From Escherichia phage mobillu, in sequence record MN850622.1: a stretch of 64,000 nt of DNA; one strand, 5' to 3'. Positions within the stretch are counted from its first letter, which is position 1. Every line of letters starts with the position of its first letter. A program made the translations under genes and the position numbers. The notes under the pieces were generated by a model. The model made no database searches and was not told the origin of the DNA. It saw only the letters and a program-made list of their open reading frames with translations. This document shows positions 21,413 to 57,038 of this stretch, in pieces.

Positions 21413-21487
21413 GGCCCTGTAGCTCAATGGGAGAGCTGTCAGCTCATAACTGATAGGTAGCTGGATCGAAACCAGCCAGGGCCACCA
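21413..21487 (+). tRNA. tRNA with CAU anticodon (Met or lysidine-type Ile; T4 synteny suggests Ile)
   Basis: Cloverleaf by hand: acceptor GGCCCTG/CAGGGCC, D arm GCTC-AATGGGA-GAGC, anticodon arm GTCAG-CTCATAA-CTGAT, T arm GCTGG-ATCGAAA-CCAGC, encoded CCA. Confidence 0.75.
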
Positions 21488-21490
21488 ATC

Positions 21491-21567
<77 letters not shown>

Positions 21568-22269: not shown

Positions 22270-22276
22270 GGCATAA

Positions 22277-22285
22277 TAATAAATA
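22277..22285 (+). promoter_or_regulatory. late-promoter-like box TAATAAATA
   Basis: One mismatch to TATAAATA; same 9-mer recurs before e and gene 49; followed by palindrome AAGTTAATTAACTT. Confidence 0.4.
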
Positions 22286-22314
22286 GATAAGTTAATTAAC
22301 TTAGGAAAAGCAAC

Positions 22315-22779
22315 ATGAAATCATACGCTGAATTTTTGACTGAACAATCTAGTTCAGATGTAAAAGCCGCTGCGATTGCAGCAATTCAAGCAGGTAAATA
22401 TTCTTACAAAGACGCCTCTGATGAAGAACGTTTCCGTTTTATTAGAGATTTTAAAGCCGAAGGTTTTACTAATGCTAATACTGTTAGCCGAGTTTTTAAA
22501 AGCCTAGCTGCATCAGGTGAATTGTTCCAGAAAGCTACAGGTAAAGCACCTGCGCCAAAAACAGACCCTAAAGCAGCTCAAGAAAAAAATATCGCCAAAG
22601 GAATTATTTCTAAGTATGAAGCAATTCTTAAAGAGCTTTTAGTAATCAAAACAGAAGGCCAGAAACTGGCACGAGCACATAGCTTCAAAGATAATCCTCA
22701 CGCTCATAGCCTTGAGTATGTTGAAGATATCCAAAAACTTATTAAAGACCGTATCTGGTCTGCTAAACAAATTAAATAA
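22315..22779 (+). CDS. internal-protein-like, capsid-targeting sequence at N-terminus
   Basis: 154 aa; N-terminus MKSYAEFLTE matches the IP capsid targeting sequence consensus (MKTYQEFI.E) with LTE cleavage motif. Confidence 0.65.
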   Translation: MKSYAEFLTEQSSSDVKAAAIAAIQAGKYSYKDASDEERFRFIRDFKAEGFTNANTVSRVFKSLAASGELFQKATGKAPAPKTDPKAAQEKNIAKGIISKYEAILKELLVIKTEGQKLARAHSFKDNPHAHSLEYVEDIQKLIKDRIWSAKQIK

Positions 22780-22785
22780 TAGAAT

Positions 22786-22812
22786 GCCCCTTCCTTATGG
22801 TTGGGGCCTTTT
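22786..22812 (+). terminator. intrinsic terminator
   Basis: GCCCC-TTCCTTATGGTT-GGGGC hairpin then CTTTTGG. Confidence 0.6.
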
Positions 22813-22902: not shown

Positions 22903-23406
22903 ATGAGTCTTTACACTGAACTGAATAAAAAATCTGAAGAATCTGCTGAAACTATTTTTAAAAACGTGCAAAAGCGTATTTTGGAAAAGATGTACGATGC
23001 AGCATCTAAAGGTGAAAAATCTTGCCGGTTTCCGATGAGGTGTTCTTCTGATTTATGCGCAAATACTATTGAATGGCTGGAAAGTGAAGGTCTTACGGTA
23101 GAGAAAAACCCGGCGACTTCTATTGACGGCGAATCATATATTAGTATTTCTTGGGATAAATCAAGGGTAGAAGAGAAAGATGGTGATTGGGTTGTAGATG
23201 TTAAAACTTCTGATGGTGGACGTTCTGTTGAAGTTTCGGCTGTAGTTAAAGGTACCCACGAACAAAGGACTTGGGGTTGGGGTGGTGAAGAAAAAGAAAT
23301 TGTTCTTAGTGTGATTGCCAGGTCAACTAGTAATAAAATTGCACAAAGCATCATTGACGCTGCAATTGCTGAAGCAGAAAAAATTTGCAAAATTAAAAAT
23401 AAATGA
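22903..23406 (+). CDS. hypothetical protein
   Basis: 167 aa charged protein after GAGGAAAA SD; fully antisense ORF 22911..23420 judged artefactual. Confidence 0.6.
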   Translation: MSLYTELNKKSEESAETIFKNVQKRILEKMYDAASKGEKSCRFPMRCSSDLCANTIEWLESEGLTVEKNPATSIDGESYISISWDKSRVEEKDGDWVVDVKTSDGGRSVEVSAVVKGTHEQRTWGWGGEEKEIVLSVIARSTSNKIAQSIIDAAIAEAEKICKIKNK

Positions 23407-23973: not shown

Positions 23974-24567
23974 ATGAACACACTGAAGAAACTTGTTGAA
24001 TTCATCCGCACTAAACTGGGTACTGCTATGGCTAAAAATCTGACTGTCGAAGAACAGTATAACGCAGCTGCAGATAAGTTGATTACCCAAATCAAAGAAC
24101 TAAAAACGGCTTCTGTTAAATCTATTAATGAAGAAAAACGTATTCGCGAACTTGTTAATGAAAAGAACAAGCAAGCCGCTTCTAAGGAACGTGAAATTCG
24201 TAAGCTCCTGGCTGAAGGACAAGATGTTACCATGCATGCTAAGCTTGGTCTTCTGTATCGTCGAACTGCCGAACAACTTAATACAAAAGCTGACGGGTAT
24301 GCCGCTATGCGAATTGAAATTGCTCGTAAGGTGGTTGAACTTGATGATGCTCGTCAGAATCTGGCAATCAAACTCGAATACATTCGTGAAACTCGAGCAG
24401 CCAATGCCCTTGGTATCTCTACGGCTGATGATGTAATTGAAATCGCTGCACTGACTAAGGTTGATATCGAAGACACTCTGACTCGTGTTGAAACGTTCAA
24501 TGGCACTCCAGCCGGCGTCGAAACCACTTCTGCTGATGTACAAGAATATATTAACTCTTTGAAATAA
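23974..24567 (+). CDS. coiled-coil protein, possibly PspA/IM30-like
   Basis: Internal [19 protein letters not shown]... with AAAGGTAA SD; long heptad-like helical sequence; family call is weak. Confidence 0.55.
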
Positions 24568-24575
24568 AATAATAC

Positions 24576-24597
24576 GGAGGACTCCGGTCCTCCTTTT
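24576..24597 (+). terminator. intrinsic terminator
   Basis: GGAGGACT-CC-GGTCCTCC hairpin then TTTT. Confidence 0.7.
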
Positions 24598-24616
24598 GGA
24601 TAATAAAGGAGTTAAC

Positions 24617-25219
24617 ATGCGAAACCAAAATAATGATATTGACTCAATGTTCGAAGAGTTCCGAGATAAGGTAAATCCACCTACGTCTTTAGTTGATTCA
24701 TTACGATATGTTGCAACCGGACGTAAATGGTACTGGTCGTCTTCTTATGAGACCACCGAGAAAACGGCTAGCCATAGCAGAAAATCTTTATTAGCCCCAG
24801 GTATTATGATTCATGATATCGGAGCTATTGCTAAACTAGTTGCAGACCATGATATTAGATTCACTGATTTCGTTGCTCCTACGTGGTCTGTTTGTTGTTT
24901 AAACACTGAATGGGAATATATCAGCGAACGCTCTGAAGATTATTATGGCTTTAGAGATAAGCTTCTGAGGTCTAATATGTTTTATATCGATACAGAAGTT
25001 CTAGTCGATAATAAAAAATATTACTTTACGTTAATCATCGATTCTGAAACTATGTATGAAGGCAAGCCTTTGCTTAAAAGAGTTGATGCTTTAAGTGCTA
25101 TTGATGCGCTTTATGAAACTATGGTTGTTAGTCCTAATTTCACTAACAATTTAATCCTTGAGCAATTTATTATGGAATGTAGAGAATATGTCAAAGCCAA
25201 CCCTATACATGCCAAGTAA
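24617..25219 (+). CDS. hypothetical protein
   Basis: ATG MRNQNNDIDSMFEEF... after AAGGAG SD. Confidence 0.6.
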   Translation: MRNQNNDIDSMFEEFRDKVNPPTSLVDSLRYVATGRKWYWSSSYETTEKTASHSRKSLLAPGIMIHDIGAIAKLVADHDIRFTDFVAPTWSVCCLNTEWEYISERSEDYYGFRDKLLRSNMFYIDTEVLVDNKKYYFTLIIDSETMYEGKPLLKRVDALSAIDALYETMVVSPNFTNNLILEQFIMECREYVKANPIHAK

Positions 25220-32054: not shown

Positions 32055-32164
32055 ATAATTCCTGTCTAATAAAGGGGAACGCAACCTCTCCTCATGAACG
32101 TCGAGTCCTCTGAGTGATGTACCTTTTCCAACCTGTAATAAGGTCGAGCGCAATGCGGTAATGG

Positions 32165-41019: not shown

Positions 41020-41058
41020 GTGTACATGCTTTTAGGATATGATACTATAGACCTATCG
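41020..41058 (+). promoter_or_regulatory. PeSL-like early promoter
   Basis: TGTACA, TACTAT, inverted repeat around -10; leader nearly identical to the 19948 and 28050 leaders. Confidence 0.6.
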
Positions 41059-41086
41059 AAACGAAATGAGTAAATTGGAGAATAAA

Positions 41087-42067
41087 ATGTTCAACGTTCA
41101 AATCAAAAAAGGTATCTATCGTAATAACGAAATCTCTGGTTCTTATGTTGCCACAAAGACCTGGTTCCCGGCAAAGCTTAATCCTGAATGTTCCCACTTA
41201 GGTGATGGTAAAATTTTCGTTATGATTGATGGATCTGAACGTGGAGTATGGGTCTTCAAATCAGACATCGTAATGGAAGGAGTTGAGACGTCACCAGTTG
41301 CAGTTGTTGAAAGCACTGAAGATATGAAAACTCGTATCAACAAACGCTTTAAAGTAATGAACATGATGACGAATGGCATTATCGATGGCAAAATTCGTTC
41401 ACTCATTATTTCAGGTGCAGCTGGTATTGGTAAGACGTATTCTCTGGATAAAGCACTTAATAATGCTAATGATAATGGTTTCATCAAATACAAAAGCATT
41501 AATGGTAAAATCTCTGGTATTGACCTTTACGAACAACTTTGGCTCAACCGTGATGCAGACAGCGTTCTCTTAATCGATGACGTTGACGTATTCTCAGATA
41601 TGGACATCCTGAACCTTCTTAAAGCAGCATTAGATACCGGAGATAAACGCAAAGTTTGTTGGAGCACTGCGTCATCTTATCTCGAGGATAAGGGTATTGA
41701 TAAAGAATTTGAGTTTGAAGGTACTATCGTTTTCATTACAAACGTTGATATCGATAAAGAGTTAGAACGGGGTTCGAAACTTGCTCCACACCTTCAAGCT
41801 TTAGTATCTCGTTCAGTGTATCTCGACCTTGGAGTACACTCTAATGAAGAGATTATGGTTCGAGTTGAAGATGTAATATTATCTACTGACATGATGCAGA
41901 AACGTGGTCTGACGGATGCAGAAACGTATAAAGCATTGTCCTGGATGAAGGCTAACGTATCTCGTCTTCGCAATGTATCATTACGTACGGCTCTTTATGT
42001 AGCAGATTTTATTTCAACTGATAAAGATGGTTGGGAAGAAATCTCGGAAGTTACTTTACTGAAATAA
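41087..42067 (+). CDS. AAA+/P-loop ATPase
   Basis: Walker A GAAGIGKTY and Walker B VLLIDDVD; about 100-aa N-terminal domain. Confidence 0.7.
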   Translation: MFNVQIKKGIYRNNEISGSYVATKTWFPAKLNPECSHLGDGKIFVMIDGSERGVWVFKSDIVMEGVETSPVAVVESTEDMKTRINKRFKVMNMMTNGIIDGKIRSLIISGAAGIGKTYSLDKALNNANDNGFIKYKSINGKISGIDLYEQLWLNRDADSVLLIDDVDVFSDMDILNLLKAALDTGDKRKVCWSTASSYLEDKGIDKEFEFEGTIVFITNVDIDKELERGSKLAPHLQALVSRSVYLDLGVHSNEEIMVRVEDVILSTDMMQKRGLTDAETYKALSWMKANVSRLRNVSLRTALYVADFISTDKDGWEEISEVTLLK

Positions 42068-46883: not shown

Positions 46884-47139
46884 AGTGTACGGGTATGACT
46901 CTACTATTCATAAATGCATTTATTGTGATAATGCGAAACGATTGCTGACTGTTAAGAAACAGCCATTCGAATTCATTAATGTTATGCCAGAAAAAGGTGT
47001 TTTTGATGATGAGAAAATTGCTGAGCTTCTGGTTAAGCTTGGACGTGAATCACAAGTCGGATTGACTATGCCTCAAGTGTTTGCTCCTGACGGAAGTCAC
47101 ATTGGTGGATTTGATCAACTGCGAGAATATTTTAAATGA
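46876..47139 (+). CDS. nrdC: glutaredoxin/thioredoxin NrdC
   Basis: MFKVYGYDSTIHKCIYCDNAKRLL...GGFDQLREYFK matches recalled T4 NrdC (87 aa). Confidence 0.92.
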   Translation: MFKVYGYDSTIHKCIYCDNAKRLLTVKKQPFEFINVMPEKGVFDDEKIAELLVKLGRESQVGLTMPQVFAPDGSHIGGFDQLREYFK

Positions 47140-47351
47140 TGCTTGAAGGAACTGATTATATCCATGACTACCGTGGAAACGCGGTATATGTAGGTGATGA
47201 AGTTGCAGTTTACTATGGGTATGGAACTTTGATGACAGCCAAGGTTATTCAAATTAAAAATAATCGTGCTAAACTCGAAGTTTATTATTCTAATGGCGAA
47301 AAGTCTATTTCTAAATGGAAATACGGCGATTGCATGGTCAAACTGGGGTAA
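47136..47351 (+). CDS. hypothetical protein
   Basis: 71 aa coupled ORF. Confidence 0.55.
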   Translation: MMLEGTDYIHDYRGNAVYVGDEVAVYYGYGTLMTAKVIQIKNNRAKLEVYYSNGEKSISKWKYGDCMVKLG

Positions 47352-47353
47352 AT

Positions 47354-47524
47354 ATGATTTACGATATTAGTGCAGCAAGAGCTCCATCAATGGTTACTAT
47401 TCCTGTTGAAGAATTAGATCGTCTTCAGAAAATTGAAGAGCTTCTTTGGGAAATTGAATCAGCTTTGCCGTCCGGACTAGAATCCTGGATTGATTATGAA
47501 GAGCTCAATAAACTCCGGGGTTAA
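47354..47524 (+). CDS. small hypothetical protein
   Basis: ATG MIYDISAARAPS... Confidence 0.45.
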   Translation: MIYDISAARAPSMVTIPVEELDRLQKIEELLWEIESALPSGLESWIDYEELNKLRG

Positions 47525-47652
47525 ACCATGGTATTCGGCTCGATGGGAAACTGTCGAGCCAGACGTCGAAACAGTTTACAACGACGAAGAAACGTGTTAT
47601 GATGAACCTACAGTAAACGATATGATTGATTTGGAAATGGGAAGAGATTATT

Positions 47653-47823
47653 ATGCAAGTTAAATTGTTATACCGTTTATTAAAAAGTGGCGAACACGAT
47701 TGGTATGTGTTGATTAAAACTGAACCAAATTTTTTCTCCGGACGACCATTTACGGTTCGACCAACTAAACGTCAGCTTCGCAAAGCGAAACGCACGCATC
47801 GCAACTTTTATAGAGGATATTGA
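47653..47823 (+). CDS. small basic protein
   Basis: ATG MQVKLLYRLLKSGEHDWYV... Confidence 0.45.
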   Translation: MQVKLLYRLLKSGEHDWYVLIKTEPNFFSGRPFTVRPTKRQLRKAKRTHRNFYRGY

Positions 47824-47824
47824 T

Positions 47825-48250
47825 ATGAATATTTCTGACACACGTGGTAAGTGGTTCAAGATTGTTAAAGATGACGAAGAACTCCAAGATAAGTTTCCTG
47901 AATTAAAGAAAGATACAATCATCAAGGTAATTGGTACTACGACCGAAGATGGTTATGGCGACCATGGCATTATTGAAGTGATGTTGAACACTGGTGAGAA
48001 ACTTTGCATCTATGACCGTGATACTTCTCTTTGGTGCTTCTGGGAATCACATTCAATAGATGAACTCGAAGAAATTGATTCGGCTGATATTGCGGATGTG
48101 CTAGGTAGTAAACTTGGTGAATTCGAAGGTGAACGAATTTCTTATGCATTAGCTAAATTAGCCGGACAAGAAAATAACGACGGCTATGAAGGTAACCTGA
48201 TGCAAGCAGCCGCAGAATACATTGAATATTTAGAAAGACGTTTAAGTTAA
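47825..48250 (+). CDS. hypothetical acidic protein
   Basis: 141 aa ORF upstream of gene 49. Confidence 0.6.
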   Translation: MNISDTRGKWFKIVKDDEELQDKFPELKKDTIIKVIGTTTEDGYGDHGIIEVMLNTGEKLCIYDRDTSLWCFWESHSIDELEEIDSADIADVLGSKLGEFEGERISYALAKLAGQENNDGYEGNLMQAAAEYIEYLERRLS

Positions 48251-54473: not shown

Positions 54474-55031
54474 ATGACTGAACAAAAACCTAAAAATAAC
54501 TATGTGAATAATAAAGAGCTTCTCGCCGCTATAATCGAGTGGAAAAAGGAGCTCTTAAATAATAAAGACCCAAACAAAATTATTCGTCAGAATGATACCA
54601 TCGGTTTAGCAATTATGCTTATCGCCGAAGGCCTGTCCAAACGTTTCAACTTTTCAGGATATACCCAGTCTTGGAAGCAGGAGATGATTGCAGATGGGAT
54701 TGAAGCCTCTATTAAGGGACTTCATAATTTCGACGAAACTAAGTACAATAACCCACATGCATACATAACTCGAGCTTGTTTTAATGCTTTTGTCCAACGT
54801 ATCAAAAAAGAACGTAAGGAAGTTGCAAAGAAATATAGTTACTTCGTTCATAATGTCTACGACAGTCATGACGATGATATGGTAGCGTTGGTAGATGAAA
54901 CGTTTATTCAAGACATCTACGATAAAATGACGCATTATGAAGAATCCGCTTATAAAGCTCCTGGGGCTGAAAAGAAGGAAGTTGTTAGCGATTCGCCTAG
55001 TTTGGATTTTTTATATGAGGATGACAATTGA
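54474..55031 (+). CDS. 55: late-transcription sigma factor gp55
   Basis: [28 protein letters not shown]... after AGAGG; near-identical to recalled T4 gp55 (185 aa). Confidence 0.93.
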
Positions 55032-55230
55032 CATCTCTAACTACTTAGAAGAACCTTTTGACGAAGCAATCCCTTATTTGGTAAAACTGTTGGGTCGAGA
55101 ATTTAAAATTAATTTTGACATCGACCCTTTGAACCCACATGACGTGTCATTTTCGATAAATGGGACCCCAGTTGAATATGAGTTCTGTATTGAAGAGGAT
55201 GGGCGTTTTTATTTTAATTTAATGAGATAA
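55021..55230 (+). CDS. hypothetical protein
   Basis: [16 protein letters not shown]... overlapping gene 55 stop. Confidence 0.5.
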
Positions 55231-55231
55231 T

Positions 55232-55555
55232 ATGACTACCGAGATTATTGAAAATAAAGAAGCAGAAGATGCAGTAGCTAAAATGCTACAAGAAATCCAA
55301 AAGAAAAATGAAGCTGAAGCACGTAAAAAATCTGAAAAGATTCTTAAAAAGAATCGTTTTGAACTAAACCGTCTTTATGCTCATGCTCAAGAAGCAGCAA
55401 TTCAAAACAACTTCGAAGCTTATGAATATGCTATTAAGAAATCTCGGGATATTCTACGACAACCATATAATGACAAGTTAATTAAAATCCAGTGGATTAC
55501 TACTCGTCAGGCTATTGAGGACATCATTAATGGCGCTAGTTCAAACAAAGTTTAA
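55232..55555 (+). CDS. hypothetical coiled-coil protein
   Basis: 107 aa Lys/Glu-rich. Confidence 0.55.
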   Translation: MTTEIIENKEAEDAVAKMLQEIQKKNEAEARKKSEKILKKNRFELNRLYAHAQEAAIQNNFEAYEYAIKKSRDILRQPYNDKLIKIQWITTRQAIEDIINGASSNKV

Positions 55556-55736
55556 ACGTCTGAAGCTGAACGCAGGGTTCACCATTAAATTGGGTGGTCC
55601 TCTTTGTGTTAAAATTTCCGAAAAGGAATATCACGACGGTTCTATTACAGAAATTTGTCCGCCTATTGTAAAGGCAGACCCAAAACAACTCGTGTGGGTT
55701 GATTCATTCCAAGTTAAGAAATGGTGGAAACGATGA
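55530..55736 (+). CDS. hypothetical protein (start uncertain)
   Basis: Frame overlapping 55232 ORF end. Confidence 0.4.
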   Translation: MALVQTKFKRLKLNAGFTIKLGGPLCVKISEKEYHDGSITEICPPIVKADPKQLVWVDSFQVKKWWKR

Positions 55737-55775
55737 GAGAAATCGATTTAGGCATTTTCTGAGAGGTGCTTATGC

Positions 55776-55949
55776 ATGACGAACATCCCGACTTCTGAAA
55801 ATTTTGATAAAATCCGTAAAGGCAAAGCAGAAAGAATGAGACGTTTTAAAGAGTCTTATGATAAAGCTAAAGCCGAAGGAACTATTACGTACAAGCCCAT
55901 TCGATTTAAAAGTTCAAATGAGCCTCTGTACGGTGTACTATGTGGATAG
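55776..55949 (+). CDS. small hypothetical protein (57 aa)
   Basis: ATG after GAGAGGTG; followed directly by a terminator. Confidence 0.4.
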   Translation: MTNIPTSENFDKIRKGKAERMRRFKESYDKAKAEGTITYKPIRFKSSNEPLYGVLCG

Positions 55950-55972
55950 GAACTCTTCGGAGTTCCTTTTTT
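55949..55972 (+). terminator. intrinsic terminator
   Basis: GGAACTC-TTCG-GAGTTCC then TTTTTT. Confidence 0.75.
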
Positions 55973-55976
55973 GCTT

Positions 55977-56000
55977 TATAAACGGATGATAGAATGAATT
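55977..56000 (+). promoter_or_regulatory. middle promoter (MotA box TGCTTTA + TAGAAT) for gene 47
   Basis: Exact MotA-box consensus core, 11-bp gap, -10-like TAGAAT, 19 nt before gene 47 ATG. Confidence 0.55.
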
Positions 56001-56018
56001 AACTAATGAGGAAATAAT

Positions 56019-57038
56019 ATGAAAATTTTGCACTTAGGCGACTTCCATATCGGAGTCAAACAAGACGACCCATGGGTTCAAGATATTCAACGTGATGGTA
56101 TTCAACAAGCAATTGAATACTCTAAGAAACACGGGATTAAAACTTGGATTCAGTACGGTGATTGGTTTGACGTCCGTAAAGCAATAACACATCGTACAAT
56201 GGAATTCAATCGTGAAATCGTTGATATGATTTCTAAAGCAGGCATTCACGTTCATGTCACGATAGGAAACCATGACATGGCGTTTAAGAATACAATAACA
56301 CCTAACACTGTTTCTGAATTGTTAACTCAATTTGAAAACTTTACTATTTACGAACATCCAACTACTGTAGATTTTGACGGATGTCTGATTGATATCGTTC
56401 CATGGATGTGTGAAGAAAATACAGGTGAAATCTTAGAGCACATCAAGACTTCTTCCGCCGCGTATTGTGTTGGGCACTGGGAATTAAATGGCTTTTATTT
56501 CTATAAAGGAATGAAGTCTCATGGGCTTGAACCTGATTTCTTAAAGACCTATAAACAAGTCTGGTCTGGCCACTTCCACACAATCTCTGAAGCTGCTAAC
56601 GTCAAATATATTGGGACACCATGGACCCTTACTGCAGGCGATGAGAACGACCCGCGCGGATTCTGGGTATTTGACACTGATGTTGAACGTATGGAATTTA
56701 TTCCTAATGAAACAACATGGCATCGACGAATCACTTATCCGTTTAAAGGCAAAATTAATTATTCTGATTATACTAATCTAGCCGTACGTGTTATAGTATC
56801 AGAAATTGATTCAGAGTTGACTAAGTTTGAATCTGAACTTGAAAAAGTAGTTCACTCTCTTCGTATGGTTTCTAAAGTTGATAACAGTGTTGAATCTGAT
56901 GACGACCAGGAAATCGAGATTAAATCACTTCAAGATATCATTAAAGAATATATTGACGCGATTCCAGATATCTCAGACGAAGACAGAGAAGCGCTGGTCA
57001 AATATTCCAACGAACTTTATATTGAGGCAACACAATGA
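56019..57038 (+). CDS. 47: recombination nuclease subunit gp47 (Mre11-like)
   Basis: 339 aa; phosphoesterase motifs LHLGDFHIG, GNHD; matches recalled T4 gp47. Confidence 0.95.
   Translation: MKILHLGDFHIGVKQDDPWVQDIQRDGIQQAIEYSKKHGIKTWIQYGDWFDVRKAITHRTMEFNREIVDMISKAGIHVHVTIGNHDMAFKNTITPNTVSELLTQFENFTIYEHPTTVDFDGCLIDIVPWMCEENTGEILEHIKTSSAAYCVGHWELNGFYFYKGMKSHGLEPDFLKTYKQVWSGHFHTISEAANVKYIGTPWTLTAGDENDPRGFWVFDTDVERMEFIPNETTWHRRITYPFKGKINYSDYTNLAVRVIVSEIDSELTKFESELEKVVHSLRMVSKVDNSVESDDDQEIEIKSLQDIIKEYIDAIPDISDEDREALVKYSNELYIEATQ

Follow-up and report, generated by a model that had tools for sequence, protein, structure and literature searches.

In phage T4, the gene a-gt lies between genes 55 and 47 and encodes the DNA alpha-glucosyltransferase of PDB entry 1XV5. 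In Escherichia phage mobillu (MN850622.1; the 64,000-nucleotide stretch analysed here is called the window), the same two genes are separated by a short interval of small genes. This raises the question whether a-gt is truly missing from this phage, and what its cytosines would carry in place of alpha-linked glucose. The cytosine sugar of a T-even phage decides whether the DNA is visible to GmrSD, BrxU (type IV), Brig1, CRISPR-Cas and BREX.

Genome alignments place the window in an RB69-like coliphage (Mosigvirus, Tevenvirinae). It covers ~38% of a ~169-kb genome, with ~105 kb lying outside, and is colinear with positions 31,688-96,139 of the complete genome of phage NBG1, which is classified as Mosigvirus mar005p1. 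Identity to NBG1 is mostly 97-98% at the nucleotide level, with a few short divergent or unmatched patches and several small indels. The window aligns similarly to mar005P1, JK42, moskry and AlbertHofmann, which assigns it to the genus Mosigvirus. At the 55-47 locus, nucleotide identity is 98.9% to NBG1 and JK42, 98.6-98.9% across many isolates, and 98.7% to Bas47, the BASEL Mosigvirus isolate also named AlbertHofmann (PMC8594841). The window proteins gp55, gp47 and gp46 are 99.5, 99.7 and 97.3% identical to those of RB69.

The gene order in T4 is 55, a-gt.5, a-gt.4, a-gt.3, a-gt.2, mobB, a-gt (400 aa), 47.1, 47. An earlier note on this DNA, which placed an a-gt gene of about 400 codons between 55 and 47 in T4, was thus right about this gene and its size but incomplete, because T4 has more genes there. 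In the window, the order is 55, a-gt.5, a-gt.4, a-gt.3, a-gt.2, a terminator, a MotA-dependent middle promoter, and 47:

54474-55031, plus strand: gene 55, late-transcription sigma factor gp55, 185 aa (PHROG 234, E 3.7e-68)
55021-55230, plus strand: a-gt.5 orthologue, 69 aa, DUF5491 (47% aa identity to T4 a-gt.5, E 1e-14; Pfam 5e-13)
55232-55555, plus strand: a-gt.4 orthologue, 107 aa, DUF2654 (58% aa identity to T4 a-gt.4, E 3.5e-32; Pfam 1.6e-27)
55530-55736, plus strand: a-gt.3 orthologue, 68 aa (71% aa identity to T4 a-gt.3, E 2e-29; PHROG 1648, E 4.9e-34)
55776-55949, plus strand: a-gt.2 orthologue, 57 aa, DUF5486 (76% aa identity to T4 a-gt.2, E 3e-24; Pfam 4.5e-28)
55948-55973, plus strand: intrinsic terminator, hairpin and T6 (pattern scan, fold, NBG1 annotation)
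55969-55995, plus strand: predicted middle (MotA/AsiA-dependent) promoter of gene 47, with MotA box TTTTGCTTTA at 55969-55978 and -10 element TAGAAT at 55990-55995
55979-56018, no strand: junction, the slot of the ~2.2-kb mobB, a-gt and 47.1 block of T4, empty in the window (DNA alignments, T4 annotation)
56019-57038, plus strand: gene 47, SbcD/Mre11-like nuclease subunit, 339 aa (PHROG 100, E 1.9e-135)

According to the window ORFs, the interval between the end of gene 55 (55031) and the start of gene 47 (56019) measures 987 bp. Its content of four small ORFs (69, 107, 68 and 57 aa), one intrinsic terminator and one MotA-box middle promoter bears out what the earlier note had read in under 1 kb. 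The flanking proteins are 89-91% (gp55) and, over the full length, 76% (gp47) identical to their T4 counterparts. All four small ORFs match PHROGs (E 2.5e-23 to 3e-33), Pfam recognises DUF5491, DUF2654 and DUF5486 among them, and each corresponds to one of the T4 genes a-gt.5, a-gt.4, a-gt.3 and a-gt.2; they are therefore real genes and not chance ORFs. The Pfam search matched no family to the a-gt.3 orthologue, which has 68 aa if read from ATG or 73 aa from a TTG at 55515. The a-gt.5 orthologue shares 11 nt with the end of gene 55, has another possible ATG at 55015, and is placed like a-gt.5 of RB69. The a-gt.4 family also occurs in Roth79, Cronus and RB49-like phages. The a-gt.N names reflect position in T4 only. 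A role of these genes as accessories of a-gt is unsupported, and any dependence on it is improbable, because they are kept in phages and lineages that lack a-gt. RB69 has the same order, 55, a-gt.5, a-gt.4, a-gt.3, a-gt.2, 47, and likewise lacks a-gt, mobB and 47.1. The same compact layout is found in the Mosigvirus phages NBG1, mar005P1, JK42, APCEc01 and Bas47, from which the window differs at this locus by point differences only.

The terminator hairpin (55948-55967) was found by a pattern scan and consists of an 8-bp stem, AGGAACTC/GAGTTCCT, with four GC pairs and a TTCG loop, followed by T6, as is characteristic of Rho-independent terminators. Its fold has a free energy of -15.2 kcal/mol (z = -2.6), and the NBG1 annotation places a terminator at the same site. 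A hairpin with a T-run is kept at this position in five phages: the window phage, T4, RB69, Roth79 and Cronus. In the predicted promoter, an 11-nt spacer separates TTTTGCTTTA from TAGAAT, and transcription is predicted to start near 56002. The site matches TGCTTYA-N10-13-TANNNT exactly, a pattern with 13 occurrences in the window versus 2.45 expected. Its MotA box and the spacing to the -10 element also agree with the published consensus of middle promoters, WWWTGCTTtA located 12+/-1 bp upstream of a sigma-70 -10 element (PMC2988021). The -10 element of RB69 is TAAAAT in place of TAGAAT. In alignments, the window promoter corresponds to two middle promoters of T4, PmobB and P47, with starts mapped to 38,682 and 36,576, respectively (Hinton 2010 review, Table 1); a full-text literature search for such promoters at the T4 a-gt gene gave no result. 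The motA gene is annotated in NBG1 (locus tag 260), beyond the region that matches the window, and we infer from sequence that the site would act as a middle promoter in the window phage.

Searches with the T4 gene confirmed the claim that a-gt is absent between 55 and 47, and extended it to the whole window. The best tblastn match had E = 0.016, and an HMM built from three a-gt sequences, which recognised T4 a-gt as positive control with E 2e-248, found nothing better than E = 0.37. The tblastn match (24704-24883; 27.5% over 69 aa) lies inside a 218-aa ORF (24563-25216) and was judged to be a chance match, because this ORF has no Pfam domain, is not among the HMM hits at E<10, and aligns only with a-gt residues 18-86. 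Searches for the other T-even modification genes, of which the earlier note had named b-gt and gene 42, also yielded no orthologue in the window or in NBG1. In tblastn searches of the window, T4 b-gt found nothing better than E 1.9, RB14 ba-gt had no match at E <=1, and T4 gp42, the dCMP hydroxymethylase, had no match. In the complete NBG1 genome, a-gt reached only E 0.038 (tblastn) and 0.33 (HMM), b-gt and ba-gt had no match at E <=0.1, and the sole match of gp42 was the orthologue of RB69 gp48 (25% identity). Searches for mobB and 47.1 likewise gave no match, either in the window or anywhere in NBG1. The absence of a-gt is real and lineage-wide, as observed in the window and in NBG1 as its proxy. 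For gene 42 and b-gt, whose region lies outside the window, the whole-genome statement draws on NBG1 and on the published RB69 data (Thomas 2018, PMC6024577).

Such a short interval might also be peculiar to this isolate, as a private deletion or an assembly artefact, and a-gt frameshifts and deletions are indeed readily selected in T4 under pressure from Brig1 (PMC11078745). However, in 146 independent phage records at least 80% of the 55-47 query aligns in one place, with 95-99% identity overall in 136 of them, and these records share the compact interval; among them is RB69, which was sequenced in 2003. Moreover, the junction contains no a-gt remnant but a clean and functional-looking arrangement of terminator, promoter and Shine-Dalgarno sequence. 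Because the compact interval is common to these 146 records, the possibility of a private deletion or artefact is practically nil and was rejected.

A further alternative is that a-gt has moved to a site outside the 64 kb. With only ~38% of the genome covered by the window, the statement that the gene is not found elsewhere in this genome rests on near-identical relatives. In favour of such a move, T4-like genomes are mosaic, and the window and NBG1 differ by several small indels. Nevertheless, a relocated a-gt is extremely unlikely, as the complete NBG1 genome gave only the background scores listed above and RB69 has no a-gt either (Thomas 2018, PMC6024577). No RB69-like phage is among the a-gt matches listed (60 of 657 records), which come from Tequatrovirus-like coliphages, Klebsiella-group phages and Erwinia phage Cronus. 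In all three lineages examined for context (T4, Roth79 and Cronus), the gene is located between 55 and 47. The absence of a-gt from the genome as a whole is the preferred reading.

What replaces glucosylation can be deduced from RB69, which lacks homologues of all three glucosyltransferases of the T-even phages and has arabinose in its DNA (Thomas 2018, PMC6024577). Its modified base is mono- or di-arabinosylated 5-hydroxycytosine (5hoC), made via the 5hodCMP synthase gp48 (Lee 2026, PMC13326640). In experiments, RB69 gp48 makes 5-hydroxy-dCMP and not hm-dCMP, and RB69 DNA, the only virion DNA in which arabinosylated 5-hydroxycytosine has been shown, is fully substituted with the mono- and di-arabinosylated forms (PMC13326640). 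The hydroxymethylcytosine (hmC) scheme of T4 is therefore inapplicable too, because the base is arabinosylated 5-hydroxycytosine. NBG1 possesses the corresponding set of genes and encodes RB69 gp3, gp45, gp46:47, gp48, gp50-53, gp55 and the gene 56 dCTPase with 97-100% aa identity. These arabinosylation genes are located at 2.5-3.6 kb and 23.7-30.3 kb of NBG1, between gene 43 and uvsX and next to rIIA, and thus just beyond the window, which corresponds to 31.7-96.1 kb and ends inside gene 43. The compact interval (at least 90% nt identity), gp48 (at least 95% aa identity) and gp46:47 (at least 95% aa identity) were each found in 153 records, an agreement between totals and not a record-by-record intersection.

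The window phage most probably uses the arabinosyl-5-hydroxycytosine pathway of RB69 and DLP3 instead of a-gt and b-gt, an assignment extrapolated from relatives, as all pathway genes lie outside the window. A thymidylate-synthase-like enzyme of the RB69 gp48 type would convert dCMP to 5-hydroxy-dCMP, proteins of the gp50-55 type would supply the NDP-arabinose donor, and two GT-B transferases, first of the gp46:47 type and then of the gp3 type, would add one or two arabinoses to 5-hydroxycytosine. The basis for this putative pathway is the 97-100% identity of the relatives in the proteins concerned. Alternatively, the cytosines of the window phage might be unglycosylated and consist of plain C, hmC or 5hoC only, because tblastn and Pfam found no glycosyltransferase in the window. 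In the Pfam search, ten large window ORFs, mostly annotated as hypothetical, showed no glycosyltransferase domain and matched DUF7275/7277, RlaP, DUF7235 and, below threshold, AAA/HTH. Three window ORFs of 320-340 aa have little or no Pfam annotation and might conceivably include a cryptic glycosyltransferase; the RB69 study, which surveyed the RB69 genome for glycosyltransferases, listed none there (PMC13326640). However, the genomes of ~98% identical relatives encode both the NDP-arabinose pathway and a pair of GT-B transferases, and RB69 DNA is fully arabinosylated (PMC13326640), which makes unglycosylated cytosines very improbable. The conclusion that the phage would not alpha-glucosylate hmC in the manner of T4, also drawn in the earlier note, is supported by the Mosigvirus identity of the window, the gene content of NBG1 and the RB69 publications. 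Judged by its relatives, the window lineage very probably does not make glucosyl-hmC.

Whether Mosigvirus lost a-gt or never had it is a separate matter. Breakpoints were located by aligning window and RB69 DNA with the modules upstream and downstream of the T4 block, and relative to T4 the break lies within the promoter module, a short distance 5' of the start codon of gene 47. In T4 and Klebsiella phage Roth79, the a-gt block is flanked by two terminator/middle-promoter modules, which in T4 contain the experimentally mapped promoters PmobB and P47. The window has a single module that appears to be a hybrid, as its MotA-box half resembles PmobB and its -10 half resembles P47 in the alignments. 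This is what would be expected from a deletion between direct repeats. Tentatively, a-gt might thus be a self-contained cassette between direct copies of the module, and the single module of Mosigvirus the scar of its deletion by recombination, although we regard this scenario as somewhat doubtful. The deletion could then date to the switch of the lineage from glucosyl-hmC to arabinosyl-5hoC. If true, T-even phages would exchange their DNA-modification cassettes at repeated regulatory modules. These cassette-like boundaries of a-gt are the one slightly new detail of this analysis.

Conversely, the compact interval may be ancestral, and the cassette may have been gained at the terminator/promoter module, by insertion or horizontal spread, in the Tequatrovirus, Klebsiella-phage and Roskildevirus lineages. 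Among the sampled matches, most other T4-like groups have a compact region here, of 1.7-3.1 kb and free of an annotated a-gt within the match; by organism name they are JS98-like, RB49-like, Proteus and Acinetobacter phages and Salmonella phage KM16, and several of them carry the gp48/arabinosyltransferase pair. Also in favour of a gain, the T4 a-gt block lies next to the homing endonuclease gene mobB. On the other hand, T4, Roth79 and Cronus all have a-gt at the same site, and its aa identities (66 and 57%) track those of the flanking gp47 (70 and 66%) and gp55 (76 and 71%). The similarity between T4 and the window (gp55 89%, gp47 76%) also exceeds that of either to Roth79 or Cronus. Because a-gt tracks its flanks and T4 and the window are so close, vertical inheritance followed by loss in Mosigvirus is favoured, and a later gain, while a serious contender, falls short of being probable. 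Neither this argument nor the hybrid module is decisive, as the polarity is inferred from pairwise identities.

The expectation that the missing a-gt alters the sensitivity to modification-dependent restriction has a direct counterpart in Mosigvirus. Brig1, which excises alpha-glucosyl-hmC, restricts phages Bas35-45, whereas two Mosigvirus isolates, Bas46 and Bas47, escape it (Nature 2024, PMC11078745). Arabinosylated DNA would not be a substrate for defences that target alpha-glucosyl-hmC, such as Brig1, and would still block ordinary restriction enzymes. The conclusion has already been published for RB69 and the BASEL Mosigvirus isolates, and the finding therefore confirms known biology. Calling the arabinosyl-5-hydroxycytosine versus the glucosyl-hmC class from a genome fragment helps annotation and the choice of therapy phages and of DNA-handling enzymes.

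Compared with T4, the window shares genes 55 and 47 and the four a-gt.N orthologues (47-91% aa identity), as well as the terminator and MotA-box promoter after a-gt.2 that match PmobB and P47. The additional ~2.2 kb of T4 are exactly the mobB homing endonuclease gene, a-gt and 47.1. T4 makes hmC via gp42 and then glucosylates it, whereas the window lineage probably combines 5hoC with arabinose. Other T4-like phages, such as the JS98-like MX01 and QL01, the RB49-like JSE, Proteus phage Pm5461 and Acinetobacter phages, also have a compact 55-47 region with no glucosyltransferase annotated, and share small ORFs of the a-gt.5/a-gt.4 type with the window. They differ from it in nucleotide sequence (65-74% identity) and in the number of small ORFs, with JSE keeping only a-gt.5 and a-gt.4. 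Many of these phages carry a gp48-type enzyme together with the first arabinosyltransferase.

Genes 55 and 47 are separated by only 987 bp in the window. The features of this region are as follows.

54474-55031, plus strand: gene 55, late sigma factor (ORF and PHROG match)
55021-55230, plus strand: a-gt.5 orthologue, 69 aa (47% amino acid identity to T4, E = 1e-14)
55232-55555, plus strand: a-gt.4 orthologue, 107 aa (58%, E = 3.5e-32)
55530-55736, plus strand: a-gt.3 orthologue, 68 aa (71%, E = 2e-29)
55776-55949, plus strand: a-gt.2 orthologue, 57 aa (76%, E = 3e-24)
55948-55973, plus strand: intrinsic terminator, hairpin AGGAACTC-TTCG-GAGTTCCT followed by T6 (terminator scan)
55969-55978, plus strand: MotA box TTTTGCTTTA, overlapping the T-run of the terminator
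55990-55995, plus strand: -10 element TAGAAT, 11 nt beyond the MotA box
56019-57038, plus strand: gene 47, SbcD-like nuclease subunit (ORF and PHROG match)

The earlier note, which had described a short interval with four small ORFs, a terminator and a MotA-box promoter, was accurate in every particular. All four ORFs match PHROG families, and DUF5491, DUF2654 and DUF5486 of Pfam are represented among them; judged by these matches they are conserved genes, not chance ORFs. The a-gt.2 orthologue matches PHROG 17354 (62 positions, E = 1.9e-14), labeled 'head maturation protease', and the same label appears under the 55-47 locus of the Salmonella phage KM16 record. For so short a protein, this seems to be an annotation error carried over between records. 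The terminator hairpin (-15.2 kcal/mol, z = -2.6) lies directly 3' of this last small ORF, and the authors of the record of NBG1, the closest complete genome, annotated a terminator at the equivalent site. The element at 55969-55995 conforms to the T4 middle-promoter rule of a WWWTGCTTtA MotA box 12±1 bp from the -10 element (PMC2988021). By analogy with the mapped T4 promoters, gene 47 transcripts are predicted to begin near 56002; a GAGG Shine-Dalgarno sequence is found at 56008-56011. The window has 13 matches to TGCTTYA-N10-13-TANNNT, where shuffling predicts 2.45, in keeping with middle promoters being densely spaced in this early-gene region. Positions include 21326, 35907, 48668, 55972 and 58665 (plus strand), the last of which is inside gene 46 and recalls the internal P46i promoters of T4.

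In the T4 RefSeq genome the order is 55, a-gt.5, a-gt.4, a-gt.3, a-gt.2, mobB, a-gt (400 aa), 47.1 and 47. The arrangement given in the earlier note, with a-gt between 55 and 47, was right in substance, and exactly mobB, a-gt and 47.1 (~2.2 kb) are extra in T4 compared with the window. The T-even glucosyltransferases a-gt and b-gt (T4) and ba-gt (RB14), the dCMP hydroxymethylase gp42, mobB and 47.1 (all T4) had no significant tblastn match in the window; the best a-gt match reached E = 0.016 over 69 aa. An a-gt HMM built from three sequences (T4, Roth79 and Cronus) gave a best E of 0.37 on the window versus 2e-248 for the T4 control, and Pfam detected no glycosyltransferase domain in ten large window ORFs, mostly annotated as hypothetical. 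Since the window covers only ~38% of the genome, the searches were repeated on the complete NBG1 genome, assembled from five consistently overlapping pieces. None of a-gt, b-gt, ba-gt, mobB and 47.1 is present in it, and T4 gp42 matched a single gene (25% identity). RB69 likewise yielded no homologue in BlastP searches with T4 a-gt, T4 b-gt and T2 ba-gt (Thomas et al., 2018; PMC6024577). The observation is confirmed, and its interpretation, that the phage would lack T4-type alpha-glucosylation, is supported.

Many coliphages, including NBG1, JK42, mar005P1, APCEc01, moha and AlbertHofmann, share the 55-47 locus at 98.6-98.9% identity, and 146 phage records cover at least 80% of this query. NBG1 is classified as Mosigvirus mar005p1. 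The window is colinear with NBG1 31,688-96,139 in reversed orientation, mostly at 97-98% identity, with a few small indels and more divergent patches. Short stretches at 22274-22786 and 23163-23389 are unmatched or only 92% identical to NBG1, ~730 bp of NBG1 (64,098-64,827, ORFs 119 and 120) are missing near 32055, ~250 bp at 47139-47388 replace ~530 bp of NBG1, and the adjoining 47388-48250 is only 88% identical. Such patches are typical mosaic variation of accessory genes in the nrdC and tRNA regions. For a 338-aa ORF at 41051-42064 (plus strand), with a counterpart labeled hypothetical in NBG1, Pfam gave matches below threshold to the P-loop NTPase families AAA_22, AAA_16, nSTAND3 and AAA_14 and to a C-terminal HTH_37; the product may be a STAND-like NTPase that also carries a DNA-binding domain. 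The window has two tRNA genes, fewer than T4, and the NBG1 record annotates the same pair.

21413-21487, plus strand: tRNA-Met(CAT), adjoining tRNA-Arg
21491-21567, plus strand: tRNA-Arg(TCT), adjoining tRNA-Met

RB69 DNA contains arabinose, not glucose, and ORF003c, a remote GT-B relative, is a candidate arabinosyltransferase (Thomas et al., 2018; PMC6024577). In the revised chemistry, mono- and di-arabinosylated 5-hydroxycytosine stands in place of all cytosine in RB69. The 5-hydroxy-dCMP is produced by gp48, a thymidylate-synthase homologue, and the sugar donor by gp50-55, with gp46:47 and gp3 proposed as the enzymes that add the first and the second arabinose (Lee et al., 2026; PMC13326640). 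The full RB69 modification pathway has counterparts in NBG1 at 97-100% amino acid identity, with gp3, gp45, gp46:47, gp48, gp50, gp51, gp52:53, gp55 and the gene 56 dCTPase all encoded there. The genes lie at 2.5-3.6, 15.3-15.9 and 23.7-30.3 kb of NBG1, just past the window end inside gene 43. The RB69 RefSeq splits two of them into the ORF pairs 46/47 and 52/53 (RB69 piece L003, 24597-25497 and 28094-29780), where NBG1 has single ORFs of 299 and 561 aa (NBG1 piece L005, 24278-25177 and 27774-29459). The compact interval (at least 90% nucleotide identity), the gp48-type enzyme and the gp46:47-type transferase (both at least 95% amino acid identity) each occur in 153 phage records, an agreement of totals rather than a record-by-record intersection.

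Homologues of a-gt occur in 657 phage records, and in all three inspected lineages (T4, Klebsiella phage Roth79 and Erwinia phage Cronus) the gene lies between an a-gt.2-like ORF and gene 47. Among the sampled matches, JS98-like, RB49-like, Proteus and Acinetobacter phages and KM16 have compact 55-47 intervals with a-gt unannotated, and several of these T4-like groups possess the gp48/arabinosyltransferase pair. In T4, a terminator/MotA-box module conserved with the window follows a-gt.2 ahead of mobB, and a second, similar module follows a-gt ahead of 47.1 and 47 (DNA alignment). They correspond to the middle promoters PmobB and P47, mapped to 38,682 and 36,576 (PMC2988021, Table 1), each start being 7 nt downstream of its own -10 as counted in the T4 sequence. 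Roth79 also has a module on each side of a-gt. In the window, as in RB69, there is just one copy, whose MotA-box half TTGCTTTATAAA matches PmobB and whose -10 half ACGGA..GATAGAATGA resembles P47.

T4 piece L002, 3675-3742 and 1575-1636, minus strand: module copies flanking the a-gt block (alignment)
Roth79 piece L010, 3424-3506 and 4692-4773: module copies flanking the a-gt block (alignment)
Window, 55948-55995: single module, left half like the upstream copy, right half like the downstream copy

The paired modules and the single, hybrid-looking copy suggest that the a-gt block may be a cassette with a direct repeat at either end, a side issue perhaps worth pursuing by comparison. Gain or horizontal spread of this cassette is a plausible, if somewhat less probable, history. 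The a-gt proteins of Roth79 and Cronus (66% and 57% amino acid identity) diverge in parallel with the flanking proteins; T4 and the window share 89% (gp55) and 76% (gp47) identity, and either shares 66-76% with Roth79 or Cronus. This closeness of T4 and the window, together with the parallel divergence, is mild evidence that a-gt is ancestral and later disappeared from Mosigvirus, possibly when the two modules recombined.

The sensitivity to modification-dependent defence that the earlier note expected to be altered is indeed so in published phages: Brig1, an alpha-glucosyl-hmC glycosylase, restricts the BASEL phages Bas35-45 and not the Mosigvirus isolates Bas46 or Bas47, and T4 escapes it via a-gt mutation (PMC11078745). 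AlbertHofmann is Bas47, and arabinosylation has been described as a Mosigvirus hallmark (Maffei et al., 2021; PMC8594841). Both the inference and its predicted consequence are already in the literature. For RB69-like phages, a 55-47 locus without a-gt is normal and has been published. The type Mosigvirus, RB69, shows the identical layout 55/a-gt.5/a-gt.4/a-gt.3/a-gt.2/47, and its gp55, gp47 and gp46 match the window proteins at 99.5, 99.7 and 97.3% identity.
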